Shown here one piece after another: positions 4,588 to 39,978 of a DNA stretch of 41,913 nucleotides. How positions within the stretch are numbered: the stretch's first letter is position 1; each line of letters opens with the position of its first letter. The position numbers and the translations under genes are program-made. The notes under the pieces are model-generated. The model saw only the letters and a program-made list of their open reading frames with translations. It was not told the origin of the DNA and ran no database searches. The stretch is taken from contig JAFGET010000109.1 of assembly GCA_016931435.1 (NCBI GenBank), forward strand, positions 1-41,913, given 5' to 3'. The stretch is from Candidatus Omnitrophota bacterium (GTDB lineage: Bacteria; Omnitrophota; Gorgyraeia; Gygaellales; Profunditerraquicolaceae).

Positions 4588-4589
4588 AT

Positions 4590-11531: not shown

Positions 11532-11534
11532 AAA

Positions 11535-12249: not shown

Positions 12250-12253
12250 GTCA

Positions 12254-12544: not shown

Positions 12545-12553
12545 AATGACCCT

Positions 12554-13792: not shown

Positions 13793-13823
13793 TTTCCCTC
13801 GCTTTGCCCGGGGAGATTATAGA

Positions 13824-14276
13824 TCAAGTTATCTCCTCCAGCGTCTTGGCAACATTGCCCCAATGCGTACCTTGCCAATAGATACGCCGGCATTGCGGGC
13901 AACCGATAAAGTCTTCCTGTGTTTTAAACACATATTCCGGGACCTTATCTTTGATCTTTGCCTTCGCTACGCTCTCAAGCGGCTTATTACAAAGTATGCA
14001 GCGCGTAAACATCTCTTGGGGCTTGGGCCTTATATCTAAAGCCTTTAAAACCTCTACCACTTGGTCCTTGATCTTCTGGCTATGTATAAACAGGATCTTA
14101 ATCGCAGTTGCTTTAGGTAAACGGTGGTTACGGGTCAAGATTATCCGCTCGTCTTTTAAGGCGGCGATAAGCAGGGAACTTAAATTATCCTGTTTAAAAT
14201 ATTCGGCGTCATAACCTAAAATCCTCAGCCACTTCAAAAGCCTGCCTAATTCTTTAGTGACGATAAACTTCATCAC
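13824..14276 (-). CDS. Mut7-C (DUF82) PIN-like RNase domain protein with C-terminal Zn ribbon
   Basis: MKFIVTKELGRLLKWLRILGYDA is a typical Mut7-C N-terminus. The C-terminus has CILCNKPL...CPQCRRIYWQGTHW. Overlaps the pyrC stop by 23 nt. Confidence 0.75.
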   Translation of the reverse strand: MMKFIVTKELGRLLKWLRILGYDAEYFKQDNLSSLLIAALKDERIILTRNHRLPKATAIKILFIHSQKIKDQVVEVLKALDIRPKPQEMFTRCILCNKPLESVAKAKIKDKVPEYVFKTQEDFIGCPQCRRIYWQGTHWGNVAKTLEEIT

Positions 14277-16492: not shown

Positions 16493-16508
16493 TTTTTGTA
16501 ACAGGTAA

Positions 16509-17108
<600 letters not shown>

Positions 17109-22756: not shown

Positions 22757-22769
22757 TTTTACCTCCAAT

Positions 22770-23282: not shown

Positions 23283-25163
23283 TCAGTCGTAGGAAAACAT
23301 TACTGTAAAAGCCTCTTCTTGACTATCTATAAATTTAGGAAAAGGGGGAAAGGGCGAAGCTTCCTTTACGCTTTTTAAGGCTACTAGGTCCAGAAGGTTA
23401 TTTGTTGAGGCAAGGACTTTTGGCCATTCTTTAAGCTGCCCGCGGGAATCCAGAATAAAGGAAACATGGACCCTGCCTTTATATACTTCGTCTTCGCCGA
23501 TATAGCCGGAGGCGATCTGGCTGATCTTCTGCCAGATAAAGTTGCGGTATTCTATGATATTGGCAAACTCGCGGCGGTTTACTCTGGATGTCTGGTCTGA
23601 ACTGATATTTTCACTGACTATATTTCCGCCTACCATCTTCATTACGGCTCCGTCTTTGGGTTTTATTTGCAGAAGTTCGGTATAAGCGCTGTCTCCGGAC
23701 ATAATATGGGGGGTGAGCAGTATCACTAATTCTGTTTTCTTTACTTCTTTGGATTTATTGCGAAAAAGCGCCCCTAAAAATGGGATATCCCCGAAAACAG
23801 GTATGGATTTCCTCGTTTCAGACTTCTCCTCCTTGCTTAAACCGCCGATGATAATAGTCACGCCGTCTTTTAGCATCACCGAAGTCTCTGCTTCGGAAGT
23901 AGTAACGATGGGTATTTGCTCTCCCTTTGCGGTAGTATACCTTTCCGCGGCCGAGCTGATCTCGGGGCGTATCTTCATCGTCACAAAATCGTCTTTGTTG
24001 ATAGTGGGGGTAACATGTAGTTTTATACCTACGTCCACAAAATTGATCGTTTCTGAAGTAGTCACTGTCCCCCCTTCGCCAGTGACCGTTGTCTGTGACG
24101 CATAAGGCTCTTTCGTTCCTACCAGTATTTTCGCCTCCTGGTTGTTCAAGGCCATGATCCGCGGGCTTGAGAGTATCTTAGTATCTCCGATCGTGCGTAA
24201 CAAGTCGATGATACCCTTATATTGCTCTTTTCCGGTCAGGCTTAAATTATCTGTTGCCATGCCAAATGTCAGCCTATTCGCGGCGGTTGCGGTAGGAATG
24301 GAAGTGACAAACCTGAAGTTTTTGGTGATCCAATAATCCCAATCCAGGCCTGCCTCGAATTTATGCGAAGGCTTTATTTCGATGATCTGCGCGTCAATCA
24401 GGACCTGCGAAGTCTTTTCATCAAAAGCCTCGATTATCTTTGAGATCTCTTCCAGTTTTTCAGGATAATCGGTTACGATTATTTTATTTGTGCGCTCATC
24501 TATTTTAATGGAGCCTACGCCCTTGGTGATCGCTTCCTGGACCTTGGCGCTTATTTTATCCGCCTGGGAGTAATTTAATTCAAAAATTTTAGTCTGCACA
24601 AGCAAATCCGTGCTGTCGATAAAATCCTCCATTTCCTTCAGCTTTTCTTCTGTATCGATAAGTACCATGGTGTTAGACCCTTCATCTACGATGATCCTGC
24701 CGATATTGGTCTTCATCTGGGTCAGGGCGCGCGCCAGATCTATCGCCTTGGCATATCTTAAAGTGACTACTTTTACCCGGGTCTTTACCTGATGTCGCTG
24801 CCCGTAGAGAAGTTCATAGTCGCGCTGGGTCATTACATTGATGATGCCGCCTTTTTTATCATAAGCCAGGTCATTGGCTAAAAGGATTATCTCAAAGGCG
24901 TCCCAGATATCCACGTCTTTAAGAAAAAGCGTGACTCTTCCGGTTACATTTTTACCTACTACGATGTTCATCCCCGAGCGGGAAGCTATCATTTTCATAA
25001 CATCAACGACATCCATGCCTTTTATGTCTAAGGAAATCCTGCTGGGGTCCTGGGGCGGTGATGATTGAGCCGGAGCATTTGCGCGGAGATTTTCCTGCGC
25101 AAAAATTGTCCCTGTTAAAAAAATAAAAAACGCGGTTAAAACAAAAATTAATTTATTTTTCAT
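23283..25163 (-). CDS. pilQ: type IV pilus / MSHA-type secretin with C-terminal TonB_C-like extension
   Basis: The start MKNKLIFVLTAFFIFLTGTIFAQ at 25163 has GGAGGAGG upstream. N-terminal STN/secretin_N-like region (ISLDIKGMDVVDVMKMIASRSGMNIVV). Secretin core (ILSSPRIMALNNQEA...IPVFGDIPFLGALFR...LVILLTPHI). Then about 95 aa of TonB_C-like tail. Confidence 0.85.
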   Translation of the reverse strand: MKNKLIFVLTAFFIFLTGTIFAQENLRANAPAQSSPPQDPSRISLDIKGMDVVDVMKMIASRSGMNIVVGKNVTGRVTLFLKDVDIWDAFEIILLANDLAYDKKGGIINVMTQRDYELLYGQRHQVKTRVKVVTLRYAKAIDLARALTQMKTNIGRIIVDEGSNTMVLIDTEEKLKEMEDFIDSTDLLVQTKIFELNYSQADKISAKVQEAITKGVGSIKIDERTNKIIVTDYPEKLEEISKIIEAFDEKTSQVLIDAQIIEIKPSHKFEAGLDWDYWITKNFRFVTSIPTATAANRLTFGMATDNLSLTGKEQYKGIIDLLRTIGDTKILSSPRIMALNNQEAKILVGTKEPYASQTTVTGEGGTVTTSETINFVDVGIKLHVTPTINKDDFVTMKIRPEISSAAERYTTAKGEQIPIVTTSEAETSVMLKDGVTIIIGGLSKEEKSETRKSIPVFGDIPFLGALFRNKSKEVKKTELVILLTPHIMSGDSAYTELLQIKPKDGAVMKMVGGNIVSENISSDQTSRVNRREFANIIEYRNFIWQKISQIASGYIGEDEVYKGRVHVSFILDSRGQLKEWPKVLASTNNLLDLVALKSVKEASPFPPFPKFIDSQEEAFTVMFSYD

Positions 25164-25338
25164 TTTATCCTCCTCCCCCAGAAAAGGGGGGACACCCAGT
25201 ACTCCGATAAACTGGGGTGCTATCCCCAGAAAAGGGGGACACCCAGTACTCACCTCAGATAAAGGTGCACTTTGCCATCCTATAGGCAAAGGTGCATGAT
25301 AAACTGGGGTGCTATTCCCAGTAAAGATGAAAGAGTAT
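25164..25338. repeat. interleaved direct repeats and hairpins upstream of the secretin gene
   Basis: Unit X, ccccagaaaagggg(g)gacacccagtact, at 25176..25203 and 25224..25250. Unit Y, gataaactggggtgctat(c/t)ccca, at 25206..25228 and 25298..25321. aaaggtgca at 25261..25269 and 25288..25296, flanking the hairpin ctttgcc-atcctata-ggcaaag. Confidence 0.8.
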
Positions 25339-25974
25339 CTATAGATAAAGTTCTAGCCTTTGCCCTTTATAGTTTAAAATAATCTTCCCTTCCTGGATAT
25401 CTTCAAGCAGTAATTCACCTAGCGCCTGGCCGCGCGATAAATAGTAGGTCTTCTGGGCCTTTTTATCCTCTAATACTGCCTGCGTATTTTCTCCGGTGAT
25501 GATCCCTACCAGGCTGATATCTTTAATCAAATCCGCGCTCTCTTTGATTACATTACTAACGGGTTTTTCTTGGGATACCGAAGAGCTACTAAAGACTTTT
25601 CGGCTGTTTATCGCCTGGGCGTAAAACTCATAAGGCTTAATCTTATTTTCGGCTTCGGGCTTTATTTCATCGATGCCGTCTTCTTTAAGTATTGTCTTTT
25701 TATGGTCATCAAGCTTAAAAAGGGGAAGGAATAAAGAAAAAATCAAATACACGCAAGAGACTATAAAAAAAGCCATAACCACCCGTCGCAATAACGGAAG
25801 CGAAAACTCCTCGCTCCGGCTCAAGGCGCCGGAAGGGGCGGGGTAAGATTGCTTTGTTTCTTCTCTTAAGACAGGTAGCTCAAGAGTTTTTTTTATAGCC
25901 TCCGCCGGTGACTTTTTGGGGGTCCGGATCAATTTAAGCAGTTTTTCTTCAGGAGAAACGTAATTTTCCGCCAT
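25339..25974 (-). CDS. PilP / GspC / MshK-like secretin-associated protein
   Basis: One TM helix (VVMAFFIVSCVYLIFSLFLPLF). The C-terminal beta domain ISLVGIITGENTQAVLEDKKAQKTYYLSRGQALGELLLEDIQEGKIILNYKGQRLELYL is typical of PilP/GspC HR domains. It sits directly upstream of the secretin. Confidence 0.5.
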   Translation of the reverse strand: MAENYVSPEEKLLKLIRTPKKSPAEAIKKTLELPVLREETKQSYPAPSGALSRSEEFSLPLLRRVVMAFFIVSCVYLIFSLFLPLFKLDDHKKTILKEDGIDEIKPEAENKIKPYEFYAQAINSRKVFSSSSVSQEKPVSNVIKESADLIKDISLVGIITGENTQAVLEDKKAQKTYYLSRGQALGELLLEDIQEGKIILNYKGQRLELYL

Positions 25975-25975
25975 A

Positions 25976-26794
25976 TCAAACTTCTTTTAGATCCTGCCTC
26001 AAGCTTTCAATAATCCGAGCGTCCACCACAGAAAGGTCCCGCATAACTATAGACTCTAGCGCATCGTGGCATAACATCGCGATCTTACGGGGATACCCCT
26101 GGGTGTACTGATAGACCAACTGGACAGCTTCGTCGTTAAAAAGACTGTGAGGATTATTTAAACCTGCCTGCCTAAGGCGAAAACCGATCATCTCTTTAGT
26201 CTCCGCTTCATCCAGGGGGTTAATCGTATATTTTAAGGCGATCCTGTCTATAAAATTACGGATGCGCTTTATGCGCGGCATAAGTTCAACCTGCGCCATG
26301 ATCACCAATTGCAGCAATTTAAATTCATTTGTCTCGTAATTAAGGAGCATGCGCAAGACCTCCAGGTTTTCCGGGGTCATCTTCTGCCCTTCATCAATAA
26401 GCAGGATAATGGTCTTATTCTCATCGATGCTTTTTTGGAATAAATATTTCTGAAGGGCTTCTTTGAAATCAAGGGTCGACTTAAAGGCCGGGGTGATCCC
26501 GAACATGCGCACAAGGCTTAATAAAAACTGGTATTCCGATTTATAATGCGGGTCTAAAATCATATGGAATATAAAATCGCTTTCGTCCTTGAAGATCTGC
26601 AGTAACGCGCGCGAAAGCGTAGTCTTTCCCGTACCCACATCCCCTAAGATAAGGTTTAGTCCTCGTCTTAAACGCACAGAGATCTCAAGGCGTTTTAAAG
26701 CGGTATCGTGGCTTGCTGAACGGTAAAAAAATTCCGGGTCAGGGCTTGTAGAAAACGGCTCTTTCTCTAATCCTAGCGCATTAAAGTAACTCAT
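25976..26794 (-). CDS. ExeA / GspA / MshM-type AAA ATPase
   Basis: YFNALGLEKEPFSTSPDPEFFY N-terminus, Walker A GDVGTGKTT, Walker B ILLIDEGQ. Confidence 0.8.
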   Translation of the reverse strand: MSYFNALGLEKEPFSTSPDPEFFYRSASHDTALKRLEISVRLRRGLNLILGDVGTGKTTLSRALLQIFKDESDFIFHMILDPHYKSEYQFLLSLVRMFGITPAFKSTLDFKEALQKYLFQKSIDENKTIILLIDEGQKMTPENLEVLRMLLNYETNEFKLLQLVIMAQVELMPRIKRIRNFIDRIALKYTINPLDEAETKEMIGFRLRQAGLNNPHSLFNDEAVQLVYQYTQGYPRKIAMLCHDALESIVMRDLSVVDARIIESLRQDLKEV

Positions 26795-27002
26795 TCTTTA
26801 TCTCTTTTATAGATTTGCCTTTTTTTCTTAAATTATGTATTGCCTCCAGGTGCGCCAGGGTAGAATCGTCAAAATAACGAAACCTGGTTTCCGGACTACG
26901 GCCGACTTCCTTGATCAGGCCTATTTTGAGGTAAAATTTTAGAGTGTGTATAGAATAACCGCTTAAACGCGCTAAATCCTTTATTAAGTAAATATTTGAG
27001 AT
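26781..27002 (-). CDS. small MerR-type HTH protein (73 aa) lacking any in-frame ATG/GTG/TTG
   Basis: Absent from the ORF track. My translation: (I)SNIYLIKDLARLSGYSIHTLKFYLKIGLIKEVGRSPETRFRYFDDSTLAHLEAIHNLRKKGKSIKEIKNELL*. An in-frame TAA lies at 27017..27015. AAGGAGG sits 5 nt before the ATC at 27002 and there is an ATT at 26993. The stop overlaps the exeA-like start by 14 nt. Confidence 0.5.
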   Translation of the reverse strand: MSNIYLIKDLARLSGYSIHTLKFYLKIGLIKEVGRSPETRFRYFDDSTLAHLEAIHNLRKKGKSIKEIKNELL

Positions 27003-27021
27003 TTTAACCTCCTTTTATGGC

Positions 27022-27097
27022 TACTCTCTATATAGAGAGTATACTATTTTATCAATTTTTGTCAAGGAAAATATGCTGCTCTCTATATGTAGAGTAG
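27022..27097 (-). promoter_or_regulatory. promoter flanked by two palindromic operators
   Basis: Minus strand: TTGACA (27065..27060), 16 nt, TATACT (27043..27038). A perfect 20-bp palindrome tactctctatatagagagta (27022..27041) overlaps the -10. An imperfect copy ctgctctctatatgtagagtag (27076..27097) lies upstream of the -35. Confidence 0.6.
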
Positions 27098-27115
27098 ATT
27101 TAACTAAGACTGGTT

Positions 27116-27655
27116 CTAGAAAGAGGCTTGTGAAATAGAAAAGCTGGAATCAAGGAGTTGTTTATTAGGTTTTGCGGTCAATTGCAGTTTTTTAATTTTT
27201 AATAACAGGGGTGAGTTTTCCAGGTCGTAAATAAATTTCAGATAATCCTCTAAAGTAGCTTCTGCTTTTAAGTCAACGGATATCTCCTGATATGATCCGG
27301 AACTCCTGGGGGCCTGAGGCCGTATATCCAGGATATGTATTGCTGATTTCTTAGCCATATTTTCTAATAAGGCAAGCGTCTTGACTATAGTCGGTTTCTC
27401 CAAAAAAGAGAGCCCTTCTGCTGAAAGTTTATCCTCTTGATGCTTCAAGGAATCTTTTTGCGCCAAGAGGCGCGCGTATTTATTAAGCCTCGCGTTAACA
27501 AGCGCAATCTCCTTATTTAAAGAATCGTGTTTTTTAAACGCGGGCATAAGTACGCTGTTAAAAATAAGGCTTAAGGCTAACGCCGCGGCCGTAAACATCA
27601 GAATCATTTTTTCTCTGGCGGACAATACTTTTTGCATATTTATCGCCTCAGGCAA
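27116..27655 (-). CDS. PilO / MshJ-like pilus assembly protein
   Basis: N-terminal TM (MILMFTAAALALSLIFNSVLM), then a coiled coil and a small C-terminal domain. Position after the PilM-PilN fusion. Alternative start MQKVLS at 27637. Confidence 0.5.
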   Translation of the reverse strand: MPEAINMQKVLSAREKMILMFTAAALALSLIFNSVLMPAFKKHDSLNKEIALVNARLNKYARLLAQKDSLKHQEDKLSAEGLSFLEKPTIVKTLALLENMAKKSAIHILDIRPQAPRSSGSYQEISVDLKAEATLEDYLKFIYDLENSPLLLKIKKLQLTAKPNKQLLDSSFSISQASF

Positions 27656-29067
27656 TCGATCTCAAAATCCACTATTTCACCGCTTTCAGCGGCTCTTTTT
27701 GTAGCGTGTTTTAATTTAATGGTATAATCTCCCATTACTGCCGACTTCTCAAGCCCGGTAACCAAGGATAACACAGCATTCATATCTTGTGATTCCCCGT
27801 ATAGTCCGACCCATTCGCCTTCTTCATAAATAAAATTGTTCAGGGATGCCCGTGGAGGCATCAAGCGGCTGATCTCGCTCAATAAATCTAAAACTGCGGC
27901 GTTAACCTTCCTGCGGCTGTTAAGCAGCTTAAGCCGCTTTTCCATAGCTTCAAGGGGCTGCGCTTCGGTCAATACTTTACTCAACTTTATGTTCTGTTTT
28001 CTTAAATACCTTCCTTTTGCCATTAGGCTTAAGTTGATGCCTAAAGCCAAGGCTAAAGCCGCCCCCAAAACATATAGAAATATCTTGCGGTATTCTTGCC
28101 GCCTGAAGAAATTCTTTGCTTCTTCCTTTTTTTCGGGAAGCGCCAGATTTAAAAACTTGGGGGCATCTTCTAGCGTAAAACCTAAAGCATTGACCAGGGA
28201 GACCTCGGGATCGGCTATCCGGGATAAAAGACTTTCGGAGAGCTCCATCTTGCTCTTATAAGGCAAAACCTCGACGGGTAATTTCACCTGTTCTGACAGG
28301 GCCTTCGTCAATCCCGGATGAAACATGCCGGTTTCGCCGAATAAAACAACCCTCTCCGGAGGCAGGCCTGGTATCTCTTTTGTATAGACGCCCAGGGTTT
28401 TATTGGCCTCTTCCGCAAAAACGTTCTCACGCTGGGGGAGATCTTTGCCGACCTTAAAATAACGGCTAAAAAGGAGTTTTTTATCCTGAGTAAACGCTAT
28501 TTCGGTATTCGACAGATCCGTATCTACCAACATAACCGGGGCGCTCTGCTGCCTGCTAAGGTGCGCGTATAAAACACAGAGACTGAAAGAACTTAAAACT
28601 ACAGAGATATTTTTTGGGTTTAATCCTTGAAAAAAATCAAGGTAACGCTCAAGGACCTCCCGCCTGACGATAATAAGATTTATGCTGCAGTAGCCCTGAC
28701 TATCGGAAGAAATGATATCGTAGGCAGTGACCAGTTCCTCCGGAGGATAAGGCAGGAAGCGCCCTGCCTGTAAATTGGCGATCTTATCAATCTCATGCGG
28801 ATTTTGCGCCGGGACTTTTAAATAACGGCAGGTAGCTTGATTGCGCGGCAAAGAAATAATAAGGGGGTTATCTTTATAGGCAGATTGCACCAGCGCCTTT
28901 TTTAATTTTTCTTTTAGTTCCTGCCCGCTCGTGCTAAGCTCAAGCGGCTGAACAACAAGATCCAGGATTTCTCTTTTTGCGCCTAAGCCGTATTTTAATA
29001 GCTTAAAAGAATTCTCCGTAAAAGAACAAACAAAGCCGGCTTTCTTGTTTTTATTAGACTTCGTCAT
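27640..29067 (-). CDS. PilM-PilN fusion (MshI-like) pilus assembly protein
   Basis: An actin-like PilM region over the first roughly 320 aa, then a TM (IFLYVLGAALALALGINLSLM) and a PilN-like C-terminal domain. Overlaps the ATPase gene stop by 14 nt. Confidence 0.65.
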   Translation of the reverse strand: MTKSNKNKKAGFVCSFTENSFKLLKYGLGAKREILDLVVQPLELSTSGQELKEKLKKALVQSAYKDNPLIISLPRNQATCRYLKVPAQNPHEIDKIANLQAGRFLPYPPEELVTAYDIISSDSQGYCSINLIIVRREVLERYLDFFQGLNPKNISVVLSSFSLCVLYAHLSRQQSAPVMLVDTDLSNTEIAFTQDKKLLFSRYFKVGKDLPQRENVFAEEANKTLGVYTKEIPGLPPERVVLFGETGMFHPGLTKALSEQVKLPVEVLPYKSKMELSESLLSRIADPEVSLVNALGFTLEDAPKFLNLALPEKKEEAKNFFRRQEYRKIFLYVLGAALALALGINLSLMAKGRYLRKQNIKLSKVLTEAQPLEAMEKRLKLLNSRRKVNAAVLDLLSEISRLMPPRASLNNFIYEEGEWVGLYGESQDMNAVLSLVTGLEKSAVMGDYTIKLKHATKRAAESGEIVDFEIDCLRR

Positions 29068-30781
29068 TTTTTAACTGATGCTCTAACTGCGTAACGCGCA
29101 TAACTTCGGCGTAAGTAGTAAGTCCGGCTAAAACCTTCTCCAGGCCGTCGTGGCGAAGGGTACGCATGCCTTCATTTAACGCCTGTTTTTTAATCTGCTG
29201 GCTGGAAGCGTGATTAAGTATTAATTCCCTTATCGGTTCGCTTATCGGCAGGATCTCATATATACCCGTGCGGCCACGATATCCTGTAAACCTGCATTCC
29301 TGACACCCTTTCCCTTCATAAATCTCTGCCTGCCTTATGCCGCATGGGATCTCTTTATAAATAAAGTTTAAGGTCTCAGCTGGATTTTTTACCGGCACTT
29401 TGCATTTAGGGCAAACCAGGCGCACCAGCCTCTGCGCAATCAGACATTCTAAAGAAGAAGAAACTAAAAACGGCTCAATGCCCATATCTAACAGGCGGGT
29501 AATTGCTCCGGCGGCATCATTGGTATGCAAGGTTGAGAACACCAGGTGCCCGGTAAGCGCAGACCTGATAGCGATCTCTGCGGTCTCGGCGTCCCTGACC
29601 TCGCCTACCATCATCACGTCGGGGTCATGTCTTAACATATGCCGAAGGGCCGCGGCAAAAGTCAAGCCGATCTGCGGATTAGCCTGGATCTGGTTTATCC
29701 CGCGCATCTGATATTCAATAGGGTCTTCGATTGTAATGATCTTATTGGCGTCGGAATTGATGCGGGCTAAAGCCGCATATAAAGTAGTGGATTTTCCTGA
29801 TCCGGTTGGGCCGGTGACGAAAACCACCCCATGGGGCTTTATGATAAAACTTTCTATCAACCTCAGGTCCTCCTGGCGCAGCCCTAGTTTTTCCAGCTCC
29901 AGAAAAAATGACAGGCTTAGAATCCTGATCTGCACCGCTTCTCCGAAGATAGTGGGGATGATGGAAACGCGCAAATCCAGCTCCTGCTGTCCTACTTTGA
30001 CTTTGATCCGGCCATCCTGCGGAAGCCTGCGTTCGGCAATATTCAAATGCGCCATGATCTTAATACGCGAGACTATGGCCAAATGGAAATATTTGATGCT
30101 TTCGGGAGTATTGATATCATAAAGTACCCCGTCGATGCGAAAACGCGCGCGTAACTCATTGGCAAAAGGCTCCAGGTGCACATCGGTAGCCCTCTCTTTA
30201 ATGGCTTCCGATAATATCTGGTTGACTACCTTGATTACCGAAGCGTCTTCCGCCAGGGCTTCTACGTCTTCGGCTTTTTCCAGGGGGATGCTTAATTCTT
30301 CAAAAGGCCCTTTTTGGGAGACCATTCTTTCTATAGTCTCGGCGCCCACGCCATAATACCTGCGGATAGCCTCCTGGATCTCCCATTCGCTGGATAAAGC
30401 ACCCTTTATTTCCAGGCTTAAAAGTAATTTAAGGTCATCGATGGTGCGGATATCCAAAGGATCGGCCATCGCAATAACTAAAATATTGTCTGTAAATTCT
30501 ACCGGCATGATCTTATAATGGCTGGCGAACTTTGCCGGGACTTTTTGGATAACCTCCAAGGATATTTCGCAGCCTCTCAATTTTATATAGGGGGTGTGCA
30601 GCTGGCGGGACAAAACGTTAAAAATTTTATCTTCCGGGGCAAAACCCAGCTTTACTAAAGTTGCGCAGATAAAATTACCGGTCTTTTTCTGTTCGATAAG
30701 ACCGGCTTCCAGTTGCTCAGGCGTAATCACGCCTTCTTTGATTAACATCTGGCCGATAAGGATATCGTCTTTGATTGGCAT
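29054..30781 (-). CDS. MshE / PilB / GspE family secretion ATPase with MshEN-like N-terminal domain
   Basis: Walker A GPTGSGKST, Asp/His boxes, and the tetracysteine CPKC...CQEC. The N-terminus carries two 24-residue MshEN-like motifs separated by 5 residues. Confidence 0.9.
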   Translation of the reverse strand: MPIKDDILIGQMLIKEGVITPEQLEAGLIEQKKTGNFICATLVKLGFAPEDKIFNVLSRQLHTPYIKLRGCEISLEVIQKVPAKFASHYKIMPVEFTDNILVIAMADPLDIRTIDDLKLLLSLEIKGALSSEWEIQEAIRRYYGVGAETIERMVSQKGPFEELSIPLEKAEDVEALAEDASVIKVVNQILSEAIKERATDVHLEPFANELRARFRIDGVLYDINTPESIKYFHLAIVSRIKIMAHLNIAERRLPQDGRIKVKVGQQELDLRVSIIPTIFGEAVQIRILSLSFFLELEKLGLRQEDLRLIESFIIKPHGVVFVTGPTGSGKSTTLYAALARINSDANKIITIEDPIEYQMRGINQIQANPQIGLTFAAALRHMLRHDPDVMMVGEVRDAETAEIAIRSALTGHLVFSTLHTNDAAGAITRLLDMGIEPFLVSSSLECLIAQRLVRLVCPKCKVPVKNPAETLNFIYKEIPCGIRQAEIYEGKGCQECRFTGYRGRTGIYEILPISEPIRELILNHASSQQIKKQALNEGMRTLRHDGLEKVLAGLTTYAEVMRVTQLEHQLKNDEV

Positions 30782-30788: not shown

Positions 30789-31442
30789 TTAAATTATCAC
30801 CACAAATTCTCCGCGGGGCTTATGAATCTTAAAATGGCTCACGATTTCCCTGGCGCTGCAGCGCTTAATTTCTTCAAACTTCTTCGTCAATTCTCTGGCG
30901 CAGGTGATTTCTTTCTCGCCAAAAATATCCTGTATATCTTCGAGGGTAGCTAAAATCCTATGGCAGGATTCGTAAAAAATCACAGTCTGTCTGTAAGCGG
31001 CGATCTCTTTGAGGCGGTTACGGCGGGCAATCTTACGATTAGGCAGAAAGCCTTCAAAGATAAATCTATGCGCCGGCTTTCCGGAAAGGACCAGGGCATT
31101 TACAAAAGCCGCGGGGCCCGGGATAACCGTGATTTCAATATTATTCTTTATCGCAAGGTTAATCAGGTGGTAACCCGGGTCCAATATCCCCGGCATCCCG
31201 GCATCTGAAACCAGGGCTACGTTTTTACCCTTTTTAAGCTGGTCAATTATATATTCTCCCTTGGTGAAACGGTTGTGCTGAAAATAACTCGTCGTAGGTG
31301 TTGCGATATCATAGTTTCTAAGCAGGATCTGGCTGTGGCGGGTATCCTCGCAGGCGATTAAATCCACGCCCTTTAGGACCTCCAGGGCCCTTAAGGTGAT
31401 ATCCTTGAGATTCCCTATAGGAGTGGCAACGATATAAAGCAT
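30789..31442 (-). CDS. rsmI: 16S rRNA (cytidine1402-2'-O)-methyltransferase
   Basis: MLYIVATPIGNLKDITLRALEVLKGVDLIACEDTRHS. The true start is the ATG at 31442. The track's extra 19 N-terminal residues translate the repeat spacer. Confidence 0.9.
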   Translation of the reverse strand: MLYIVATPIGNLKDITLRALEVLKGVDLIACEDTRHSQILLRNYDIATPTTSYFQHNRFTKGEYIIDQLKKGKNVALVSDAGMPGILDPGYHLINLAIKNNIEITVIPGPAAFVNALVLSGKPAHRFIFEGFLPNRKIARRNRLKEIAAYRQTVIFYESCHRILATLEDIQDIFGEKEITCARELTKKFEEIKRCSAREIVSHFKIHKPRGEFVVII

Positions 31443-31577
31443 GGCAAATTCAAATGTCAAAGCACAAATGAAAAAATAATGCCAAAGCACAAATGACAAA
31501 TAACAAAACTTTTGGTTTTATATTTGACATTGGGATTTTGGATTTATTTTGACATTTGGATTTTGTCATTTGACATT
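31443..31577. repeat. AT-rich inverted pair of heptanucleotide-periodic arrays (spacer B)
   Basis: Right arm tgacatt|tggattt|tgtcatt|tgacatt (31550..31577) abuts the glmS stop. Also tgacatt|gggattt|tggattt (31525..31545). The left arm has NNNCAAA units (tgtcaaa|gcacaaa|tgaaaaa ... caaagca|caaatga|caaataa). The 17-mer tttgacatttggatttt (31548..31564) is identical to 3260..3276. Confidence 0.85.
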
Positions 31578-33416: not shown

Positions 33417-33520
33417 ATTCGCCTCGCTTCTCTCGGCTAAATTTAAAAGTCAAAACGAAAAAGTTGAAATGAATCTTTAAAACTTTTGCCTTTTACGCTT
33501 TGACTTTTGACTTATTAATG
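33417..33520. repeat. AT-rich heptamer-periodic inverted repeat (spacer C)
   Basis: aaaagtcaaaacg (33445..33457) against cgctttgactttt (33496..33508). Heptamers cttttgc|cttttac|gctttga|cttttga|cttatta (33483..33517). The 11-mer aaatgaatctt (33467..33477) is identical to 3175..3185. Confidence 0.8.
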
Positions 33521-33595
33521 TGTCCCCACGGGGATTTGAACCCCGGTCGAGAGCTTGAAAAGCTCTTGTCCTAGGCCAGACTAGACGATGGGGAC
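33521..33595 (-). tRNA. tRNA-Glu (anticodon UUC)
   Basis: Reverse complement: GTCCCCATCGTCTAGTCTGGCCTAGGACAAGAGCTTTTCAAGCTCTCGACCGGGGTTCAAATCCCCGTGGGGACA. Acceptor GTCCCCA/TGGGGAC, anticodon loop TT-TTC-AA, T-loop TTCAAAT. Confidence 0.9.
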
Positions 33596-33778: not shown

Positions 33779-34861
33779 TTATGCGGCAATCCTTCTCTCT
33801 AATACCATCGGGGAGGTTAGCCGATTTTTATAAACAGGGCTTTCTTTAAAACCTAACCTTTTAAAAAGCATGCGGCTAAGGAAGTCTTTTTTAAAAACGC
33901 TGGCAAAAATCAAAGATACCCCGAATGCTTTCAGTAATTCATCGGATTTACGCACTAACCCTTCTTCCAGGCGGCTACCCCAGAATAGGGGATGAATCTT
34001 TACTTGAGCTAACCACCATCCGGGATAAAGACAACTTTTTGGCTTTAATATAAAAGACAGGCTGGCTGTCGTTTCTGTCCCGGCTTTGACAGTAAGCGTC
34101 CATTTTTTTATTTTATCTTCGTTTTGCCGGCACATAGAACTAAACAATTCCCGGAAGGAGATATCAGTATTAAATAAAGAATCTATATTGTTGTTTAGCG
34201 GCATCTGAACGGAAAATTGCATGCTTTTGGGAACAGGGAATAATATCCGAAATGCCTTCCGAAATAAAAAAGATTGGAGTACAAAAGCCTCTATATAAAG
34301 CCAGACTACCGCTAATATCCATTTAGACTTATGCAGGGCAAAAAAAGCCTTTAGATAGAATTTTTTTAGCGCGGAATAAGGCCTTTTTTCTACGCTCACA
34401 AGCCGCCCACCTCTTTCGGCGGCCGTAACTACACCTATGATATCTTCGTCAAAGCTCGGGCCATCATCTCTGCCTTTGGCATTATCCGGGCGGGTGACAA
34501 TAAAAGGCGCGCCGTTCTCATTCCCCTTTTTGATAGTGCGGTGGGCAAAAAGATGGTTGTTACGACGGTAAAGGGCGACTTCCCCTATTTGTATATCTTC
34601 TGTCCTTTTTAATTCTACGCGCAGCTTATCCGTGGGGCGAATGCAAGGATACATACATAGCCCCTTAGCGGATAAATTAACCTTGTTATTTTGTATTAAC
34701 ACCTCTTTAAACTCAACTAGTTTCGCTAAGGTCCCGCCTTCCTCTTTTAACCAGGAAAATGCCGCCGTATATCTAAAGCTATTTTGTATATCGGCGCAAG
34801 TAGGGATATAATTATAGTTCCGGAAGCAAAATTTCTTATTTTGTGGGTTAGCGCAAGACAT
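33779..34861 (-). CDS. fusion protein: SipW/Sec11-type (S26B-like) peptidase domain with Cys in the nucleophile position, TM segment, GNAT-like C-terminal domain
   Basis: AKGLCMYPCIRPTDKLRV fits G-x-S-M-x-P-x-x-x-x-GD with Ser replaced by Cys69. HLFAHRTIKK is the HR(V/I) His motif of S26B. TM: WILAVVWLYIEAFVLQSFLF. C-terminus WWLAQVKIHPLFWGSRLEEGLVRKSDELLKAFGVSLIFASVFKKDFLSRMLFKRLGFKE is GNAT-like. The start overlaps the PqqD-like stop by 14 nt. Confidence 0.55.
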   Translation of the reverse strand: MSCANPQNKKFCFRNYNYIPTCADIQNSFRYTAAFSWLKEEGGTLAKLVEFKEVLIQNNKVNLSAKGLCMYPCIRPTDKLRVELKRTEDIQIGEVALYRRNNHLFAHRTIKKGNENGAPFIVTRPDNAKGRDDGPSFDEDIIGVVTAAERGGRLVSVEKRPYSALKKFYLKAFFALHKSKWILAVVWLYIEAFVLQSFLFRKAFRILFPVPKSMQFSVQMPLNNNIDSLFNTDISFRELFSSMCRQNEDKIKKWTLTVKAGTETTASLSFILKPKSCLYPGWWLAQVKIHPLFWGSRLEEGLVRKSDELLKAFGVSLIFASVFKKDFLSRMLFKRLGFKESPVYKNRLTSPMVLERRIAA

Positions 34862-35153
34862 GGACTATTTTTCTCTTGAGAAGCTCTTTTAAAAAACTTC
34901 GGACATCTTGTTTGATGGTATCGGGGGGCGCGCTGAATTCTTTGGATAGCTCTTCTACAACTGCCTTTAAGCTCTTCTTTTGAGCCAATTGATCCCAAAC
35001 TGCCCTGCCGGTTTCATTAGCGCTGAATATCACCTCTTCTTCGTTTGACCCCACGGCGCTAATGGGGATAAGGATAAGCTCCCCCTGTACGTCTCTTGCC
35101 ACCACATCTTCCGAGGGGACATAGGTCTTGTTTAAGTCAATTTCTACTGTCAC
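34848..35153 (-). CDS. PqqD-family RiPP recognition element (RRE) protein
   Basis: 101 aa, GTG start with GGAG 7 nt upstream. VVARDVQGELILIP....IFSANETGRAVWDQLAQKKSLKAVVEELSKEFSAPPDTIKQDVRSFLKELLKRKIV matches the PqqD pattern (vlln..tg.y.LN.tg..iW.l..g..tl.eiv..l...y.v....DV..fl..L...gl). Confidence 0.7.
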   Translation of the reverse strand: MTVEIDLNKTYVPSEDVVARDVQGELILIPISAVGSNEEEVIFSANETGRAVWDQLAQKKSLKAVVEELSKEFSAPPDTIKQDVRSFLKELLKRKIVHVLR

Positions 35154-35317
35154 TATACGCTCCTTTTTATAAATTATTTATTCTATCGACGCGTTTCCCG
35201 GCTCCTCTTACAATCGGCTGACGGATTCAATCGCTTTTCCTAATCTTCTATTCTCGGCTCTGTCTACAGCACCTTTACATTGTAGCCTTGAAATCGTTCT
35301 TTGTAACGCAAGAAATG

Positions 35318-37327
35318 CTACCTAAATATTAAAAAAAGGCGCCTAAGGTGCTTATGTTTTACATAAAATTGGGTGCGTATAAACGGCTTCCTTGATTTAA
35401 GTAAAGCCTTATGTAATTCTTCTTTGGATAATTTAATCTCAACGTTTTTTTTGAGGCATCTGGCAAGTGAAATATTGATCAGAGGGTCCGACGGGTCGAT
35501 TTTTTCGGCCTTTTTAAGTTCAATTATAGCCTTGGAAAACTCCCCTATCCCCATATAGGCTCTTCCTAAAAAATGCGGGATATTATGAAACCTGCGGAAT
35601 ATATCATTTAGGGCAGAAGATTTATTGATCTCGCTTATGGCACCGGAATATTGTTTGTTTTTAAAAAGGATCTCTGCTTTCTGGATGATAAAGAGGGCTT
35701 TTTCTTTACCAGCCAAATATTGAAAAAAGATTTTTTTAAATTCGGCCTTGCTTTTACGGGGCATTTTTTTTCTCAGCGCTCTAATCTCTTGGTATAGATC
35801 TTGGGTCTTTTTAAACAATTGTTGCTCTCTGTGGCTTAAGCCTACGGAGAAATAATTATAAATTTGCTTGCAGCTGAAATCAGGATTCCAATCATAAAGG
35901 TTAATCAGGGATTCGACCGCGGATTGAATATTGCCTCGCATCTGATAACAGTAGGCGAGATTTACAATACAGAAGGAACGGATCTCTGCTTTTTCGGCTG
36001 GTTCCAAATATTTTGTTCTACTTAAGGCTTTCCCCGTATTCAAGAAATATGAAATTGCTTCATCAAACCGTGATTGACGCCGAAGATAAATTCCTTGATA
36101 AAACCAGTAAATAGCCTGATTCGGCCTATCTTTTTTGCAGGCTATGCTTATATATTTTGCTGCGCCCCCGTAATTTTTAGTTATCAGGCTTTCGAGAATA
36201 AGCCCTGCCCAAAGATTGCGATATCTCGTCCTCTTATGAAAAAGCCTGCATTGTGGGATATATACATACACACAAGGTATGTTCAAGGTTTTATCTGTCG
36301 CGATAATAAAAAAAACACGCATTGGTTGTTTGTCTAATAATTCTTTGATTCTTTTTATTTCCAAAAACATGTTCGGGTCGGAGATATTAGGGATATCTTC
36401 CATAGAGATAGTTTTATCGTGCCTAAAGTGAAACTTAACCGAAGGGGTCTTTCTGACTACATCTCTATTGCCTTCAACCTGTGAATTTTCTGTCAGGGCC
36501 CTCATCAGCGCCTCGTAGCGATCAGTAGCCGCACCTGCGGTAATCACGCAATAATCTTCATCTATTTTTCTTATTGCTGCGATTATGGGCATGCCTAACC
36601 CGAGCGAAAAATCTTTAATGTAAACTTTTTGGCCAAGCGCATCAACCTTCTTGATTAAATCTTCGGCGGCGGGAAGGTTTATTGTGGTTTTATCGATAAA
36701 CGGGGTTTTTATTTGTTCTGATTCTATTAACGCCAGAAAATGCCTTTCTAGAACCTCGCAAATTCCGTGCAATAATGCTTCTTCCAAAGAATTACCGGCT
36801 GCCATACCATTAGTACTCTCCAAGAGATACCGTATTAAATTCATCGGAAGATATGCCTTTTCCCCTTCCAGGGTATAGCCCTGATACCAGGAGATCTTGG
36901 CAGTTTCTAATTCTTTTACGGATTCCGGATCGCTCAAATGAGGATATTTCAAAATATCTTTTAAACAAAATAAATTATTCCTTAACTGCACTTTAGCAAA
37001 AGAAGACTCAAGGCTTACGTTGTTTTGCAGATATTTACTGCAAGAATACCTTTCAATAAACTCCATCAAGCCGCTTGCTAAAGCTTGCGCCTTAGAATGC
37101 CCTTTTCCATTTTGTCCTATAGACATAGTAAGTTTCTGGTAATCTTCTGTACCCAGGACTCTGACTTGCGGGCTCCTTAACGGTGTTTGCACCTCTAGGT
37201 ATTGCGCTAAAATTGGGGGGGTGAGATTCTTTATTTTTTTTAAAACAATCTCGCAGGTTTTTTCTGGAGCAATGGCCTTGCCGATTGCTTGATCCTTATA
37301 ATTTTTGAAAGAGTCTCTTAAAATCAT
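35318..37327 (-). CDS. YcaO-domain protein with C-terminal TPR-like repeats
   Basis: GQNGKGHSKAQALASGLMEFIERYSC and STNGMAAGNSLEEALLHGICEVLERH are the YcaO ATP/Mg-binding signatures. The last roughly 280 aa are helical repeats (AISYFLNTGKAL..., AVESLINLY..., GRAYMGIGEFSKAIIELKKAEKIDPSDP). Confidence 0.8.
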   Translation of the reverse strand: MILRDSFKNYKDQAIGKAIAPEKTCEIVLKKIKNLTPPILAQYLEVQTPLRSPQVRVLGTEDYQKLTMSIGQNGKGHSKAQALASGLMEFIERYSCSKYLQNNVSLESSFAKVQLRNNLFCLKDILKYPHLSDPESVKELETAKISWYQGYTLEGEKAYLPMNLIRYLLESTNGMAAGNSLEEALLHGICEVLERHFLALIESEQIKTPFIDKTTINLPAAEDLIKKVDALGQKVYIKDFSLGLGMPIIAAIRKIDEDYCVITAGAATDRYEALMRALTENSQVEGNRDVVRKTPSVKFHFRHDKTISMEDIPNISDPNMFLEIKRIKELLDKQPMRVFFIIATDKTLNIPCVYVYIPQCRLFHKRTRYRNLWAGLILESLITKNYGGAAKYISIACKKDRPNQAIYWFYQGIYLRRQSRFDEAISYFLNTGKALSRTKYLEPAEKAEIRSFCIVNLAYCYQMRGNIQSAVESLINLYDWNPDFSCKQIYNYFSVGLSHREQQLFKKTQDLYQEIRALRKKMPRKSKAEFKKIFFQYLAGKEKALFIIQKAEILFKNKQYSGAISEINKSSALNDIFRRFHNIPHFLGRAYMGIGEFSKAIIELKKAEKIDPSDPLINISLARCLKKNVEIKLSKEELHKALLKSRKPFIRTQFYVKHKHLRRLFLIFR

Positions 37328-37404
37328 TTTATGAGGCTCAAAGAGAGATACTTACAAAAGATCCAAGCTTATGCTACAGGGGTAATATTATCATTCGCCA
37401 AATA

Positions 37405-37433
37405 ATATTACTATAACTATAATCATAAGTCAA
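37405..37433 (-). promoter_or_regulatory. sigma70-type promoter for the YcaO module
   Basis: Minus strand: TTGACT (37433..37428), 17 nt, TAATAT (37410..37405). About 75 nt upstream of the YcaO ATG. Confidence 0.55.
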
Positions 37434-37548: not shown

Positions 37549-39978
37549 CTATTCTACTTCGGCGATTACGGGGGCGACACAGGAGACGTGGTCTTTAGAA
37601 TCAAGCTTTATCAGGCGCACGCCCTGGGCAGAGCGGCCGGTCTCGCGGATATCTTTTACCGCGCAACGTAAAAATACTCCGTTTTGAGTGATCACCATCA
37701 GCTCATCCTTATCTCCGACGGCTTTGATACTTACTGCCTCGCCGTTTTTATCGGTGACCTTGATATTAATCACCCCCTTGCCGCCGCGGCTGGTCAGGCG
37801 GTATTCGTCAATGGTCGTGCGCTTGGCAAAACCTAAAGCGGTGACTGTTAGGATATTGGTGCCCTTGCTGGCTACTACCAAAGCGATCACTACATCCTTT
37901 TTATCAAGTTTAACTGCGCGCACGCCTTTTGCCCCCCGGCCCATATCCCGGACTTTTTCTTCCTGGAAACGTATGGCTTTGCCCTGGCGCATGCCGATCA
38001 AAAGCTCCTGCTTACCGTCAGTCAGTTCAACGCCGATCAAGGCGTCTCCTTTTTCCAAGTTGATGCCGATGATGCCTCCCTTACGCGGGTTGCTATAAGC
38101 ATCCAGTTTGGTTTTTTTGATCAATCCCTGCTTAGTGATCATCACCAGGAACTTGTCCGGCGAGAACTCCTTCACCGGAATAGTAGCACTGATGTTTTCA
38201 CCTGAAACCATCTGTAAAAGATTGATGATCGCTTTGCCTTTTGCCGCGCGGCTTGCCTGCGGGATCTCATAGGTCTTCAGCCAATAAACCCGGCCTTTGT
38301 CGGTAAAAACAAGGAGATAATCCTTGGTGGAGGCCACAAACAGATGCTCGATAAAATCCTCGTCTTTGACTTCCGCGCCCGTGACCCCCCTGCCTCCGCG
38401 CTTTTGCTTGCGGTAAGAACTTACCGGCAGCCGCTTGATATAACCTCCGTGGCTGATAGTCACTACTACGTCTTCTTCGGCAATAAGGTCCTCTATTTCC
38501 AGCTCTTCTACTTCTCCTACGATATCCGTGCGGCGCTCATCCCCGTACTTTTTCTTTAAATTTTCGAGTTCTTCCTTGATAATGCTTTCCACCTTTTTTT
38601 CGGAAGCAAGTATAGAGCGGCATAATTCGATCTTCTTAAGGAGTTCCTTGTATTCGGCGTCTATCTTATCGCGCTCCAGGGCAGTCAAACGCTGCAGCTG
38701 CATCTCCAAGATGGCCTGGGATTGGATCTCGGAAAGCTCAAACTCCTTCATCAGGCGGCGTTTAGCCTCTTCGGTATTTTTGGAAGTCTTGATCGCCTTG
38801 ATAATGCGGTCAATGAATTTCAACGCGATCTTTAAGCCTTCCAGGATATGCGCGCGCTTAAGCGCTTTATCAAGTTCAAACTGGGTGCGGCGGCGGATGA
38901 TCACCTTGCGGTGTCCGATATAATATTCCAGTATCTGGCGCAGGTTCAAGACGCGCGGGCGGTTATCCACTAAAGCCAACATGATGATACCGAAGGTAGT
39001 CTCAAGCTGCGTATGCTTAAAGACCTGGTTTAGAATAATCTGGGGTTCGCTGTCACGTTTTAATTCTATGACCACCCGCAGCCCGTCTTTATCGGATTCA
39101 TCGCGTATATCTGATATGCCCTCGATTTTCTTATCGTCAACCAGCTCGGCGATAGCCTCGATGAAGGCTGCTTTCTGGACCTGATAAGGGATTTCAGTAA
39201 TAACGATCAAATCTTTGCCGTTCTTCTGGTGCTCTACCGTAGCTTTGGCGCGCACGGTCAATTTTCCTCTTCCCGTAGTATAAGCGTCCTTTATGCCGCC
39301 CTTGCCGCAGATTACTCCGCCCGTAGGAAAATCCGGGCCCTTTACATAACGCATCAGGTCTTTTATCTCAGCCTGTGGATTATCTAATAGATAAATAATG
39401 GCATCGGCTACTTCACTTAAATTGTGCGGGGGAATATTGGTGGCCATCCCAACGGCAATACCGCTTGAGCCGTTGACCAGCAGATTAGGAAGCGTAGCGG
39501 GTAATAACAATGGTTCGCTTAGCGAAGAATCAAAATTCGGCCCAAAATTGACCGTATCTTTATCAATATCGGAGAGCATCTCTTCGGAAATAGAAGACAG
39601 GCGCGCCTCTGTATAGCGCATAGCCGCAGCGGCATCTCCGTCAAGCGAGCCGAAATTACCCTGTCCTTCTACAAGAGGATAACGCAGGGAAAAATCCTGG
39701 GCCATTCTTACCAAAGTATCATAAACGGCTACATCTCCGTGCGGGTGGTATTTTCCCAAGACTTCACCGACGATACGGGCGCATTTTTTGTAGGGTTTAC
39801 TGTGCTCTAACCCCAGCTCCTGCATCGCATAAAGAATCCTTCTGTGCACGGGCTTAAGCCCATCGCGCACATCCGGCAGGGCACGGCCCACGATTACGCT
39901 CATGGCGTAATTTAAGTAAGAATCCTTGACCTCTTCCTCGATATAAACCGGGATTACTTTTTCGTTACGAGTATACAT
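37549..39978 (-). CDS. gyrA: DNA gyrase subunit A
   Basis: [36 protein letters not shown] (catalytic Tyr), and a C-terminal beta-pinwheel with GyrA-box-like QKRGGRG. Confidence 0.95.

Follow-up and report, generated by a model that had tools for sequence, protein, structure and literature searches.

Introduction

What can a set of peptide-modifying enzymes be doing in a genome where no peptide is encoded beside it? The question is raised by contig JAFGET010000109.1 of a Candidatus Omnitrophica metagenome-assembled genome (MAG; locus tags JW788_), the 41,913 nucleotides of which, called the window here, carry three co-oriented genes: for a YcaO protein with a tetratricopeptide repeat (TPR) tail, for a discrete PqqD-type protein that would serve as a recognition element (RRE) in the making of a peptide that is synthesized by ribosomes and modified after translation (RiPP), and for a 360-residue fusion protein, here named Prot3, in which a peptidase of the Sec11/SipW fold is joined to a GNAT-fold domain. 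A sequence-only reading had seen in this trio a compact module with the logic of a RiPP pathway. The proteins turn out to be largely what that reading took them for, and their homologs lie together in a precursor-bearing cluster of other Omnitrophota; there, however, they are accompanied by genes that the window lacks. We think it fairly probable that the trio is a satellite that copies, in reduced form, the tailoring and processing part of a RiPP pathway specific to Omnitrophota.

Cooperation between an RRE and a peptidase of this kind has a precedent in Bacillota, in the linear polyphosphorylated peptide (LPP) pathway, which comprises the RRE LppB, the SipW-like signal peptidase I LppS, the HprK-like kinase LppK, the NTP transferase LppN and the MsbA-like exporter LppD (PMC13381572, Nat Commun 2026). 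In experiments, leader removal by LppS took place only with the discrete RRE LppB present, and the LppS residues S29, H68 and D93 were required; the same work notes that lasso-type RREs recognise a [Y/W]xxPx[L/V/I/A/F/Y] leader motif and calls LPPs restricted to Bacillota (PMC13381572).

Results

Homologs of the three genes share a recurrent Omnitrophota cluster

Homologs of Prot3 are almost confined to Omnitrophota MAGs and to metagenomes, where they occur in a recurrent cluster. This parent cluster holds one to four small precursor genes, a gene for an ~650-aa fusion of a radical S-adenosylmethionine (rSAM) enzyme with an HprK-like domain ("ScmC"), and genes for an ~400-aa rSAM_A, PqqD, Prot3 and an ~375-aa rSAM_B, together with an ABC exporter, a PF14907 nucleotidyltransferase (NTP_transf_5) and a PMT_2 glycosyltransferase-like protein; in some clusters a short S24/S26 peptidase replaces Prot3. 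In the window the PqqD and Prot3 genes overlap by 14 nt. They are neighbours, and as a rule overlap, in 9 of the 11 other distinct loci with Prot3; L004/L005, where no PqqD was seen, and L011, where the two are separated by an rSAM gene, are the exceptions.

The YcaO-TPR gene keeps the same company. It is found in one cluster with PqqD and Prot3 in L017/L018/L026/L029 (two tandem copies), L027 and L034, so that homologs of all three genes are indeed syntenic in other genomes, and it adjoins rSAM, PqqD, S24 or precursor genes in L030, L032, L033, L038, L040 and L047/48, standing next to PqqD and rSAM genes specifically in L038 and L047/48. Altogether, the YcaO of the Omnitrophota clade is embedded in a RiPP cluster in at least eight distinct loci.

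The search for small open reading frames (ORFs) conserved near homologous modules, which had been suggested as a check on the sequence-only reading, brought to light a precursor family of 33 unique sequences, present in up to four copies per cluster. Its members share the leader KKKWGKPKLIxLxRGKPEExVLxxCK, in which K5, W6, L11, L14, E20, E21, L24, C27 and K28 are invariant, as are three Cys residues of the core; the core itself is variable, Gly/Ser-rich and Cys-rich, with a C-terminal Ser/Thr. Within the leader, K-W-x-x-P-x-L (K-W-G-K-P-K-L) fits the RRE motif [Y/W]xxPx[L/V/I/A/F/Y]. NCBIfam has no model for the family and returned only insignificant lasso-peptide matches. Examples of precursors lie at L001 3819-4022, L005 5701-6702, L006 9294-9470, L017 9759-9938 and L019 6090-6947, and in L022 and L023.

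Some features of the sister clusters deserve a record of their own. Two YcaO-TPR genes are present per cluster in L017 (5631-9564, in tandem), L030 (3053-10977) and L038 (9995-18664), which suggests that the two proteins either carry out distinct modifications or form a heteromeric enzyme. Between the PqqD and YcaO genes of L017, positions 4558-5388 encode a 276-aa protein with an N-terminal signal-like segment and weak matches to Leptospira lipoprotein N-termini; a counterpart lies at the edge of the L027 cluster (11973-12362), and none was found in the window. The ScmC-like domain matches Hpr_kinase_C weakly (E=3.3e-4). An assignment of the sister clusters to a named rSAM RiPP family was rejected, all NCBIfam equivalogs scoring far below their cut-offs, as was the idea that a partial ORF upstream in L009 might be a YcaO C-terminus, to which it has no similarity.

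The window holds only part of that cluster

Against this background, what the window does not contain is as telling as what it does. A hidden Markov model (HMM) of 10 precursors was run on the six-frame translation of the 41.9-kb window, on all segments of 15 aa or more, with a best E of 0.61, and a family-independent listing of small intergenic ORFs in the three spacers of the locus gave none with two or more Cys or with 35 or more residues, in agreement with the earlier observation that no precursor lies in cis. The other cluster genes were sought by blastx against labelled references and by Pfam scans of 20 other ORFs of the window, which revealed only housekeeping (pyrimidine, glmS, gyrase), pilus/type II secretion and Fic genes; going by these HMM, blastx and Pfam searches, precursor, rSAM, ScmC/kinase-like, NTP_transf_5 and cluster-type exporter genes are absent from the 41.9 kb. 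The usual partners of YcaO proteins are likewise missing, as had been claimed, with no E1-like, TfuA, dehydrogenase or exporter gene found in the window, and neither TfuA nor an E1-like protein is among the Pfam families listed for L017. rSAM genes accompany Prot3 at each of the other loci found, and precursors do at most of them; the window has neither, and the view of the trio as a self-contained compact module has to be given up.

The missing precursor, rSAM and other genes imply that the trio is either a satellite, whose substrate would be encoded at another place, or what remains of a reduced cluster. As a remnant, it would be a cluster from which the precursor, rSAM, kinase-like and exporter genes have been deleted and which makes no product, its three ORFs being as yet undecayed. 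The gene content just described would be expected of such a leftover, and so would the spacing: in canonical clusters rSAM_A overlaps the start of PqqD and rSAM_B overlaps the end of Prot3, and the window has spacers of 164 and 183 nt at exactly these places. A degenerate cofactor motif in the GNAT domain (see below) points the same way, except that the degeneracy is shared by P0002 and P0003, which have rSAM neighbours. We nevertheless regard a remnant as rather unlikely, given that none of the three ORFs is disrupted or shortened, that the catalytic residues of both YcaO and the peptidase are conserved, that a Shine-Dalgarno sequence and translational coupling have been retained, and that relaxed blastx found no rSAM pseudogene fragments in the spacers. 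As regards a satellite, relatives show that genes of this pathway can be dispersed: in MAG STA_64, an orphan precursor (L024) and the cluster (L025) sit on different contigs, and FW104_bin.10 has, besides a full cluster with its own YcaO-TPR (L027), a second YcaO (L013) on another contig.

A stand-alone PqqD of the cluster type

The second protein of the trio, 101 aa long and free-standing, is the PqqD-family RRE that it had been called, matching PF05402 with E=1.5e-15 and 57.7 bits against a gathering score of 23.4. Its best NCBIfam match is to the lasso PqqD chaperone NF033536, at 38.2 bits under the cut-off of 80, and neither a lasso cyclase nor a transglutaminase-type protease, which would accompany a lasso B1 chaperone, was detected in the window. 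It is 56-62% identical to the PqqDs of precursor-carrying clusters, whose leaders are of the WxxPxL type, and shares with them the strand VVARxVQGEFIIIPI; from this identity we infer that the window protein, too, binds such leaders.

Prot3 joins a putative cysteine peptidase to a GNAT fold

As a single sequence Prot3 had no Pfam match, and its sole NCBIfam match, to archaeal-type signal peptidase I (S26B; TIGR02228), reached 35 bits, under the cut-off of 51.85. Its make-up emerges at the level of the family and of predicted structure, where a full-length AlphaFold2 model (mean predicted local distance difference test, pLDDT, 78.9) displays a Cys-rich N-terminus, a Sec11/SipW-fold peptidase, a hydrophobic helix and a GNAT-fold domain. 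The earlier description of a fusion of peptidase, membrane anchor and GNAT domain thus stands for the two folds, neither of which has a Pfam match in Prot3 itself, while the anchor amounts to a single predicted helix that is hydrophobic (Kyte-Doolittle 19-residue mean of 2.04 at aa 182-200). The public annotation of the protein, P0001, is 291 aa long and begins at Met70, so that it drops Cys3, Cys12, Cys22 and the putative catalytic Cys69; the 360-aa reading is the right one, because homologs align from residue 1.

The family profile of the N-terminal domain matched human SEC11A/SEC11C in the PDB (E=4e-6), and a Foldseek search with a domain-only AlphaFold model (pLDDT 85.6) returned only proteins of clan SF (LexA, SEC11A/C, SpsB, SipA, UmuD), with a TM-score of 0.65 to SEC11A. 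In the alignment to SEC11A, Cys69 takes the place of Ser in GSMEP, and His107 and Asp126 line up with HRV and GDN, respectively; instead of the Ser-His-Asp of signal peptidase I, Prot3 therefore has Cys69 at the position of Ser, with His107 and Asp126 aligned. Among 25 aligned family members, the nucleophile motif reads G-x-C-M-Y-P with a nearly invariant Cys, His107-Arg108 is invariant and Asp126 nearly so, and Cys69, His107, Arg108 and Asp126 are all present in the Prot3 of the window. Among 148 cluster representatives of a full-library search (P0136–P0283), the nucleophile position is occupied by Cys in 106 and by Ser in 11, and the short peptidases of ~160 aa that replace Prot3 in sister clusters retain Ser, in GSSMLP or GFSMWP. 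An interchange of Ser and Cys at one aligned position is the pattern expected of a catalytic nucleophile, and Cys69, in place of Ser, is the putative nucleophile of the peptidase.

Four proteins of 745-750 aa (P0194, P0238, P0239, P0274) carry the whole Prot3 architecture fused to a PF14907-type nucleotidyltransferase (NTP_transf_5); three of the four (P0239, P0274 and probably others) have Ser at the nucleophile position.

The GNAT fold of the C-terminal part was recognised by Foldseek with the full-length model, whose pLDDT is mostly 75-93 over aa 210-340, through matches to many GNATs, among them 2r7h (E=9e-6), NatD and RimI, at a probability of 1.00. A few members of the family match the Pfam GNAT models (Acetyltransf_1/7) directly; for the window copy, no GNAT match in Pfam or NCBIfam is significant. 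Motif A (Q/R-x-x-G-x-G/A), which lies between strand 4 and helix 3 and binds the pyrophosphate of acetyl-CoA, is RYRGTG in the family consensus and LFWGSR in the window copy, where the Gly alone is kept. Capping of the new N-terminus by this domain, as the sequence-only reading had proposed, would be plausible for most of the family; in the window copy it is doubtful, because the acetyl-CoA motif is degenerate.

With no other substrate encoded nearby, it is tempting to look for one within Prot3 itself, and the Cys-rich 45 residues at its N-terminus, which are predicted to be flexible and include the conserved Cys3, Cys12 and Cys22, had been put forward as the peptide that is modified and released. 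The idea is unneeded, since the same N-terminus is conserved in homologs that stand beside genuine precursor genes; the segment moreover reads Y16-N-Y-I-P20 and has no [Y/W]xxPx[L/V/I] motif for the RRE to bind, and its Cys triad would fit a metal-binding or regulatory element at least equally well. We consider a self-substrate very improbable.

The YcaO-TPR protein and its relatives

The first protein of the trio is a YcaO with intact ATP/Mg signatures and a TPR-like tail, as had been recognised at the outset. It matches PF02624 with E=1.9e-49 and 169.2 bits against a cut-off of 25.7, and TIGR00702 with 98.9 bits against 75.65. The residues of the ATP/Mg2+ site, as defined elsewhere (PMC7774982), are E89, E92, R93, E183, E191, E194 and R195; all are present, and they are invariant in an alignment of 19 sequences of the clade that includes the window protein. 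Several TPR families match the C-terminal part (Table 1), and a YcaO-TPR profile matched TPR proteins at its positions 370-640. Searches gave 236 YcaO-TPR homologs, the architecture being common in Omnitrophota and Desulfobacterota.

Among solved structures, the best match is M. jannaschii MJ1094 (PDB 6pe3/6peu; E=1.1e-30, profile positions 17-304), which ranks ahead of TruD, LynD and E. coli YcaO and which we take to be a thioamide-forming YcaO that works without TfuA. The McrA-glycine thioamidation model TIGR03266 is the best-scoring NCBIfam subfamily, yet at 104.8 bits against a cut-off of 365 it is not reached, so that the window protein is not an ortholog of the McrA-thioamidation YcaO. 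Nor is the model of the azoline-forming cyclodehydratase SagD of thiazole/oxazole-modified microcins (TIGR03604; 74.9 bits against 219.25), and in place of the E1-like gene, of which the window has none, there is the discrete PqqD; the E. coli-type model NF040716 is also out of reach (81.3 bits against 700). As to the chemistry, our first guess from these similarities would be thioamidation, and our second an azoline on a core Cys.

McrA-type YcaOs, and E. coli YcaO acting on uL16, modify cellular proteins, and it may be asked whether the window YcaO-TPR does likewise, either alone on a cellular protein or together with a MiaB/RimO-type enzyme, its adjacency to PqqD and Prot3 being secondary. 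In favour of such a housekeeping role is the closest homolog, P0018 (62% identity, 540 aa; L013 4729-6689, on SCRK01000084.1 of MAG FW104_bin.10), the gene of which is followed after 3 nt, in a housekeeping context, by a UPF0004 gene (MiaB/RimO N-terminal domain). The distant YcaO-TPR loci L051-L107, at 24-34% identity, have essentially none of the cluster partners, a few showing a weak rSAM- or ABC-like neighbour; the best structural and subfamily matches are MJ1094 and the McrA-thioamidation model; and in the window itself the neighbours are gyrBA and glmS. The genetically studied YcaO-TPR DVU2210 of D. vulgaris has no known peptide substrate, its native target being undetermined (PMC7774982). 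Yet the Omnitrophota-clade gene sits repeatedly inside the RiPP cluster, the window copy is immediately followed, in the same orientation, by the genes of an RRE and a leader-type peptidase, the window has no MiaB/RimO gene, and the E. coli-type and McrA-type scores fall far under their cut-offs. A housekeeping modifier seems to us quite unlikely, more so than a remnant.

The locus and its surroundings

The three ORFs, their lengths and the overlap between the second and third are exactly as first described (Table 1), and PqqD is preceded by a strong Shine-Dalgarno sequence, AAGGAG. Upstream of the trio lie gyrB and gyrA (gyrA at 37549..39978), downstream tRNA-Glu and then glmS. The promoter TTGACT-17-TAATAT assigned to the YcaO gene is present, though it is a mere candidate, because the number of such sites in the window (10) equals that expected from shuffled sequence (9.1 +/- 3.2).

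Table 1. Coordinates of the trio, its domains and its flanking elements in the window
Feature	Coordinates	Strand	Basis and remarks
YcaO-TPR fusion gene	35318..37327	-	ORF, 669 aa; start codon matches homologs
YcaO ATP/Mg2+-binding domain, aa 73-360	36248..37111	-	Pfam envelope
TPR region, aa ~376-643	35399..36202	-	Pfam: TPR_16/TPR_12 at aa 385-428, TPR_1/2/8/14 at aa 586-623
Spacer between YcaO and PqqD genes, 164 nt	35154..35317	-	Shine-Dalgarno AAGGAG 5' of the PqqD GTG start
PqqD-type RRE gene	34848..35153	-	ORF, 101 aa; GTG start
Prot3 gene	33779..34861	-	ORF, 360 aa; homologs align along its whole length
Prot3 N-terminal segment, aa 1-45	34727..34861	-	Cys3, Cys12 and Cys22 nearly invariant in the family; pLDDT 39-62
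Peptidase domain, aa 46-160	34382..34726	-	Putative triad Cys69-His107-Asp126
Helical linker, aa 164-207	34241..34372	-	AlphaFold2 helices 164-196 and 198-207; hydrophobic segment aa 182-200
GNAT-fold domain, aa 213-357	33791..34225	-	Foldseek; motif A degenerate here
Promoter-like TTGACT-17-TAATAT	37405..37433	-	5' of the YcaO gene; scan score 9/12; candidate only
tRNA-Glu(UUC)	33520..33595	-	ARAGORN and Rfam; downstream boundary, outside the module

A foreign origin, which low G+C content next to a tRNA gene had seemed to hint at, is not borne out. YcaO, at 38.7%, is the gene of lowest GC in the window (z=-2.2), and Prot3 has 41.6% and PqqD 46.1%, against 44.6 +/- 2.7% in the other genes; the dip is modest, two unrelated genes of the window are also at 39-40%, and PqqD exceeds the mean. 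No att-like direct repeats and no duplicated tRNA fragment were found flanking the trio, and with the GC deviation this weak, insertion as a mobile island is unsupported. In the spacers, Rfam matched tRNA-Glu as the only structured RNA.

Between the start of glmS and tRNA-Glu, at 33440..33513, lies an imperfect inverted repeat of 24 nt (83% complementary, 26 nt between the arms), which may serve the tRNA as a terminator or processing signal, or glmS as a regulatory hairpin. Farther along the minus strand, a type IV pilus/type II secretion set occupies 23283..30781, with a secretin at 23283..25289, a PilM-like protein at 27640..29067 and a T2SSE/MshEN ATPase at 29054..30781; next to it is a tetrapyrrole-methylase-family gene at 30789..31499. 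A 1271-aa ORF with a TTG start (18953..22768, minus strand) has a C-terminal Fic/DOC domain (aa 1177-1228) as its sole Pfam match, and downstream of it is a 486-aa ORF at 17355..18815 with no Pfam match; both are low in GC3 (~0.41). A run of pyrimidine biosynthesis genes at 457..16573 on the minus strand (OMP decarboxylase, dihydroorotate dehydrogenase B and its Fe-S/NAD subunit, carB, carA, dihydroorotase and aspartate carbamoyltransferase) is broken by a GT2 glycosyltransferase gene (3279..4451) and by tRNA-Arg(CCG) at 12178..12249.

Discussion

A satellite of the Omnitrophota cluster could work as follows. PqqD, as a discrete RRE, would bind the leader (K-W-x-x-P-x-L...PEExVLxxCK) of a precursor encoded elsewhere in the genome and hand the peptide to Prot3, whose Sec11/SipW-fold domain, through Cys69-His107-Asp126, would remove the leader, much as LppB and LppS do in Bacillota. 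The TPR-fused YcaO would be an accessory tailoring enzyme, activating with ATP a backbone amide in the Cys-rich core, its TPR tail probably standing in, for docking, for the absent E1-like or TfuA partner. Acylation of the new N-terminus may fall to the GNAT-fold domain in most members of the family; in the window copy this domain perhaps serves only for binding or as a scaffold. Of the RiPP logic that had been proposed for the trio, this retains the machinery itself, which clusters with precursors elsewhere, and the step from RRE to peptidase, which now has a precedent; it parts with a compact module complete in itself, and the capping step is doubtful for this copy. It is a more tentative thought, and one that we would not call likely, that the trio is a working minimal pathway acting in trans, in which the RRE recruits WxxPxL-leader peptides from elsewhere, the TPR-docked YcaO, needing neither TfuA nor an E1-like protein, installs most likely a thioamide, and the GNAT-fused Cys protease releases the product.

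Several observations weigh against a satellite that is still part of a RiPP pathway. The trans-encoded substrate is assumed, and precursor, rSAM, ScmC/kinase-like, nucleotidyltransferase and exporter genes are all missing from the window. Among the ~100 loci examined there is no second arrangement of YcaO, PqqD and Prot3 without rSAM. The chemistry of the YcaO is guessed from sequence similarity, with every subfamily model far under its cut-off, and motif A of the GNAT domain is largely lost. A neighbour-joining tree built on the YcaO domain puts the window protein together with P0018 and P0017, within the radiation of Omnitrophota sequences; the base of this tree is poorly resolved, and these two closest relatives (62% and 56% identity, respectively) lie on short contigs with no visible RiPP genes, P0018 with its MiaB/RimO-like neighbour. 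Finally, the precursor cores are alike in clusters with and without YcaO, and the attempt to read a YcaO target site from them was abandoned, since no feature separates the two kinds of cluster.

The sequence-only reading knew of no described family with this combination of domains, and that holds for one half of it: no description of the pairing of YcaO-TPR with the Cys-peptidase–GNAT fusion was found, but the coupling of an RRE to a SipW-like peptidase was published in 2026. In the libraries and literature searched, there was no description of the Cys-nucleophile peptidase–GNAT fusion, of its pairing with YcaO-TPR, of the precursor family or of the rSAM-rich parent cluster, and a search of the literature on SynChlorMet/ScmC and on Omnitrophota RiPPs turned up nothing specific. 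What is new here, then, is the Cys in place of the Ser nucleophile, the fusion of peptidase and GNAT, and a TPR-fused YcaO as partner with neither TfuA nor an E1-like protein.

YcaO-TPR proteins are common in anaerobes (Omnitrophota, Desulfobacterota), and the repeated embedding of the Omnitrophota clade in a precursor-bearing cluster offers a concrete, testable substrate. The PqqD–Prot3 pair extends the logic of an RRE with a SipW-like leader peptidase beyond Bacillota to a distant phylum, and the switch from Ser to Cys within a signal-peptidase fold, together with the GNAT fusion, is relevant to protease evolution and to RiPP engineering. The parent cluster is an unexplored biosynthetic family of an uncultured and possibly host-dependent phylum. 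The module of the window, though incomplete, is a pointer to this family, and a natural rSAM-free version could isolate the YcaO and peptidase steps. Should the trio prove to be a working trans-acting pathway, it would represent a new class of RRE-dependent cysteine leader peptidase, would provide a first substrate for the widespread YcaO-TPR proteins, which are known but have no function assigned to them, and would belong to a hitherto undescribed Omnitrophota RiPP family in which LPP-type, radical SAM and YcaO chemistry come together.

It is instructive to set the locus beside the systems that it resembles. With SynChlorMet (SCM) and other cassettes of SPASM-type rSAM and PqqD (ScmC/D/E/F, GeoRSP, the ranthipeptide PapB), the sister clusters have in common a PqqD-type RRE, an ScmC-like domain and SPASM-type rSAMs, and they match ScmD, ScmE and ScmF weakly; all the scores, however, are far under the equivalog cut-offs, and the window has no rSAM or ScmC gene. 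YcaO proteins of the DVU2210 type, from Desulfobacterota, share the order of YcaO and then TPRs in one polypeptide, with homologs at 24-34% identity, but form a clade separate from the Omnitrophota clade of the window, and the distant homologs stand essentially without cluster partners. The archaeal YcaOs MJ1094 and TIGR03266 are the best structural and subfamily matches and resemble the window protein in that no TfuA or E1-like gene lies near it; they differ from it in that the window YcaO has a TPR extension of ~300 aa and a RiPP context rather than one of methyl-coenzyme M reductase.

The arrangement of an RRE encoded immediately upstream of a Cys leader peptidase recalls the B1 and B2 proteins of lasso peptides, with which the pathway also shares the type of leader motif, and the best NCBIfam match of the window PqqD is, under its cut-off, a lasso chaperone. 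The protease folds differ, Prot3 belonging to clan SF (LexA/signal peptidase) and lasso B2 having the transglutaminase fold, and no lasso cyclase is present here. With the LPP pathway the common ground is a discrete PqqD-type RRE gene beside the gene of a Sec11/SipW-type peptidase, which in the window overlap, a [Y/W]xxPx[L/V/I] leader (in the sister clusters K-W-G-K-P-K-L, with none in the window) and, in the sister clusters, an HprK-like domain (weak Hpr_kinase_C), a PF14907 NTP transferase and an ABC exporter. The fusion of Prot3 to NTP_transf_5 in some proteins likewise fits LPP. The window itself is without kinase, NTP transferase, exporter and precursor. Beyond this, the Omnitrophota version differs from LPP in its phylum, in the putative Cys, not Ser, nucleophile of its peptidase, in the fusion of that peptidase to a hydrophobic helix and a GNAT fold, and in the further enzymes of the sister clusters, which add two or three rSAM enzymes and sometimes a YcaO-TPR protein.

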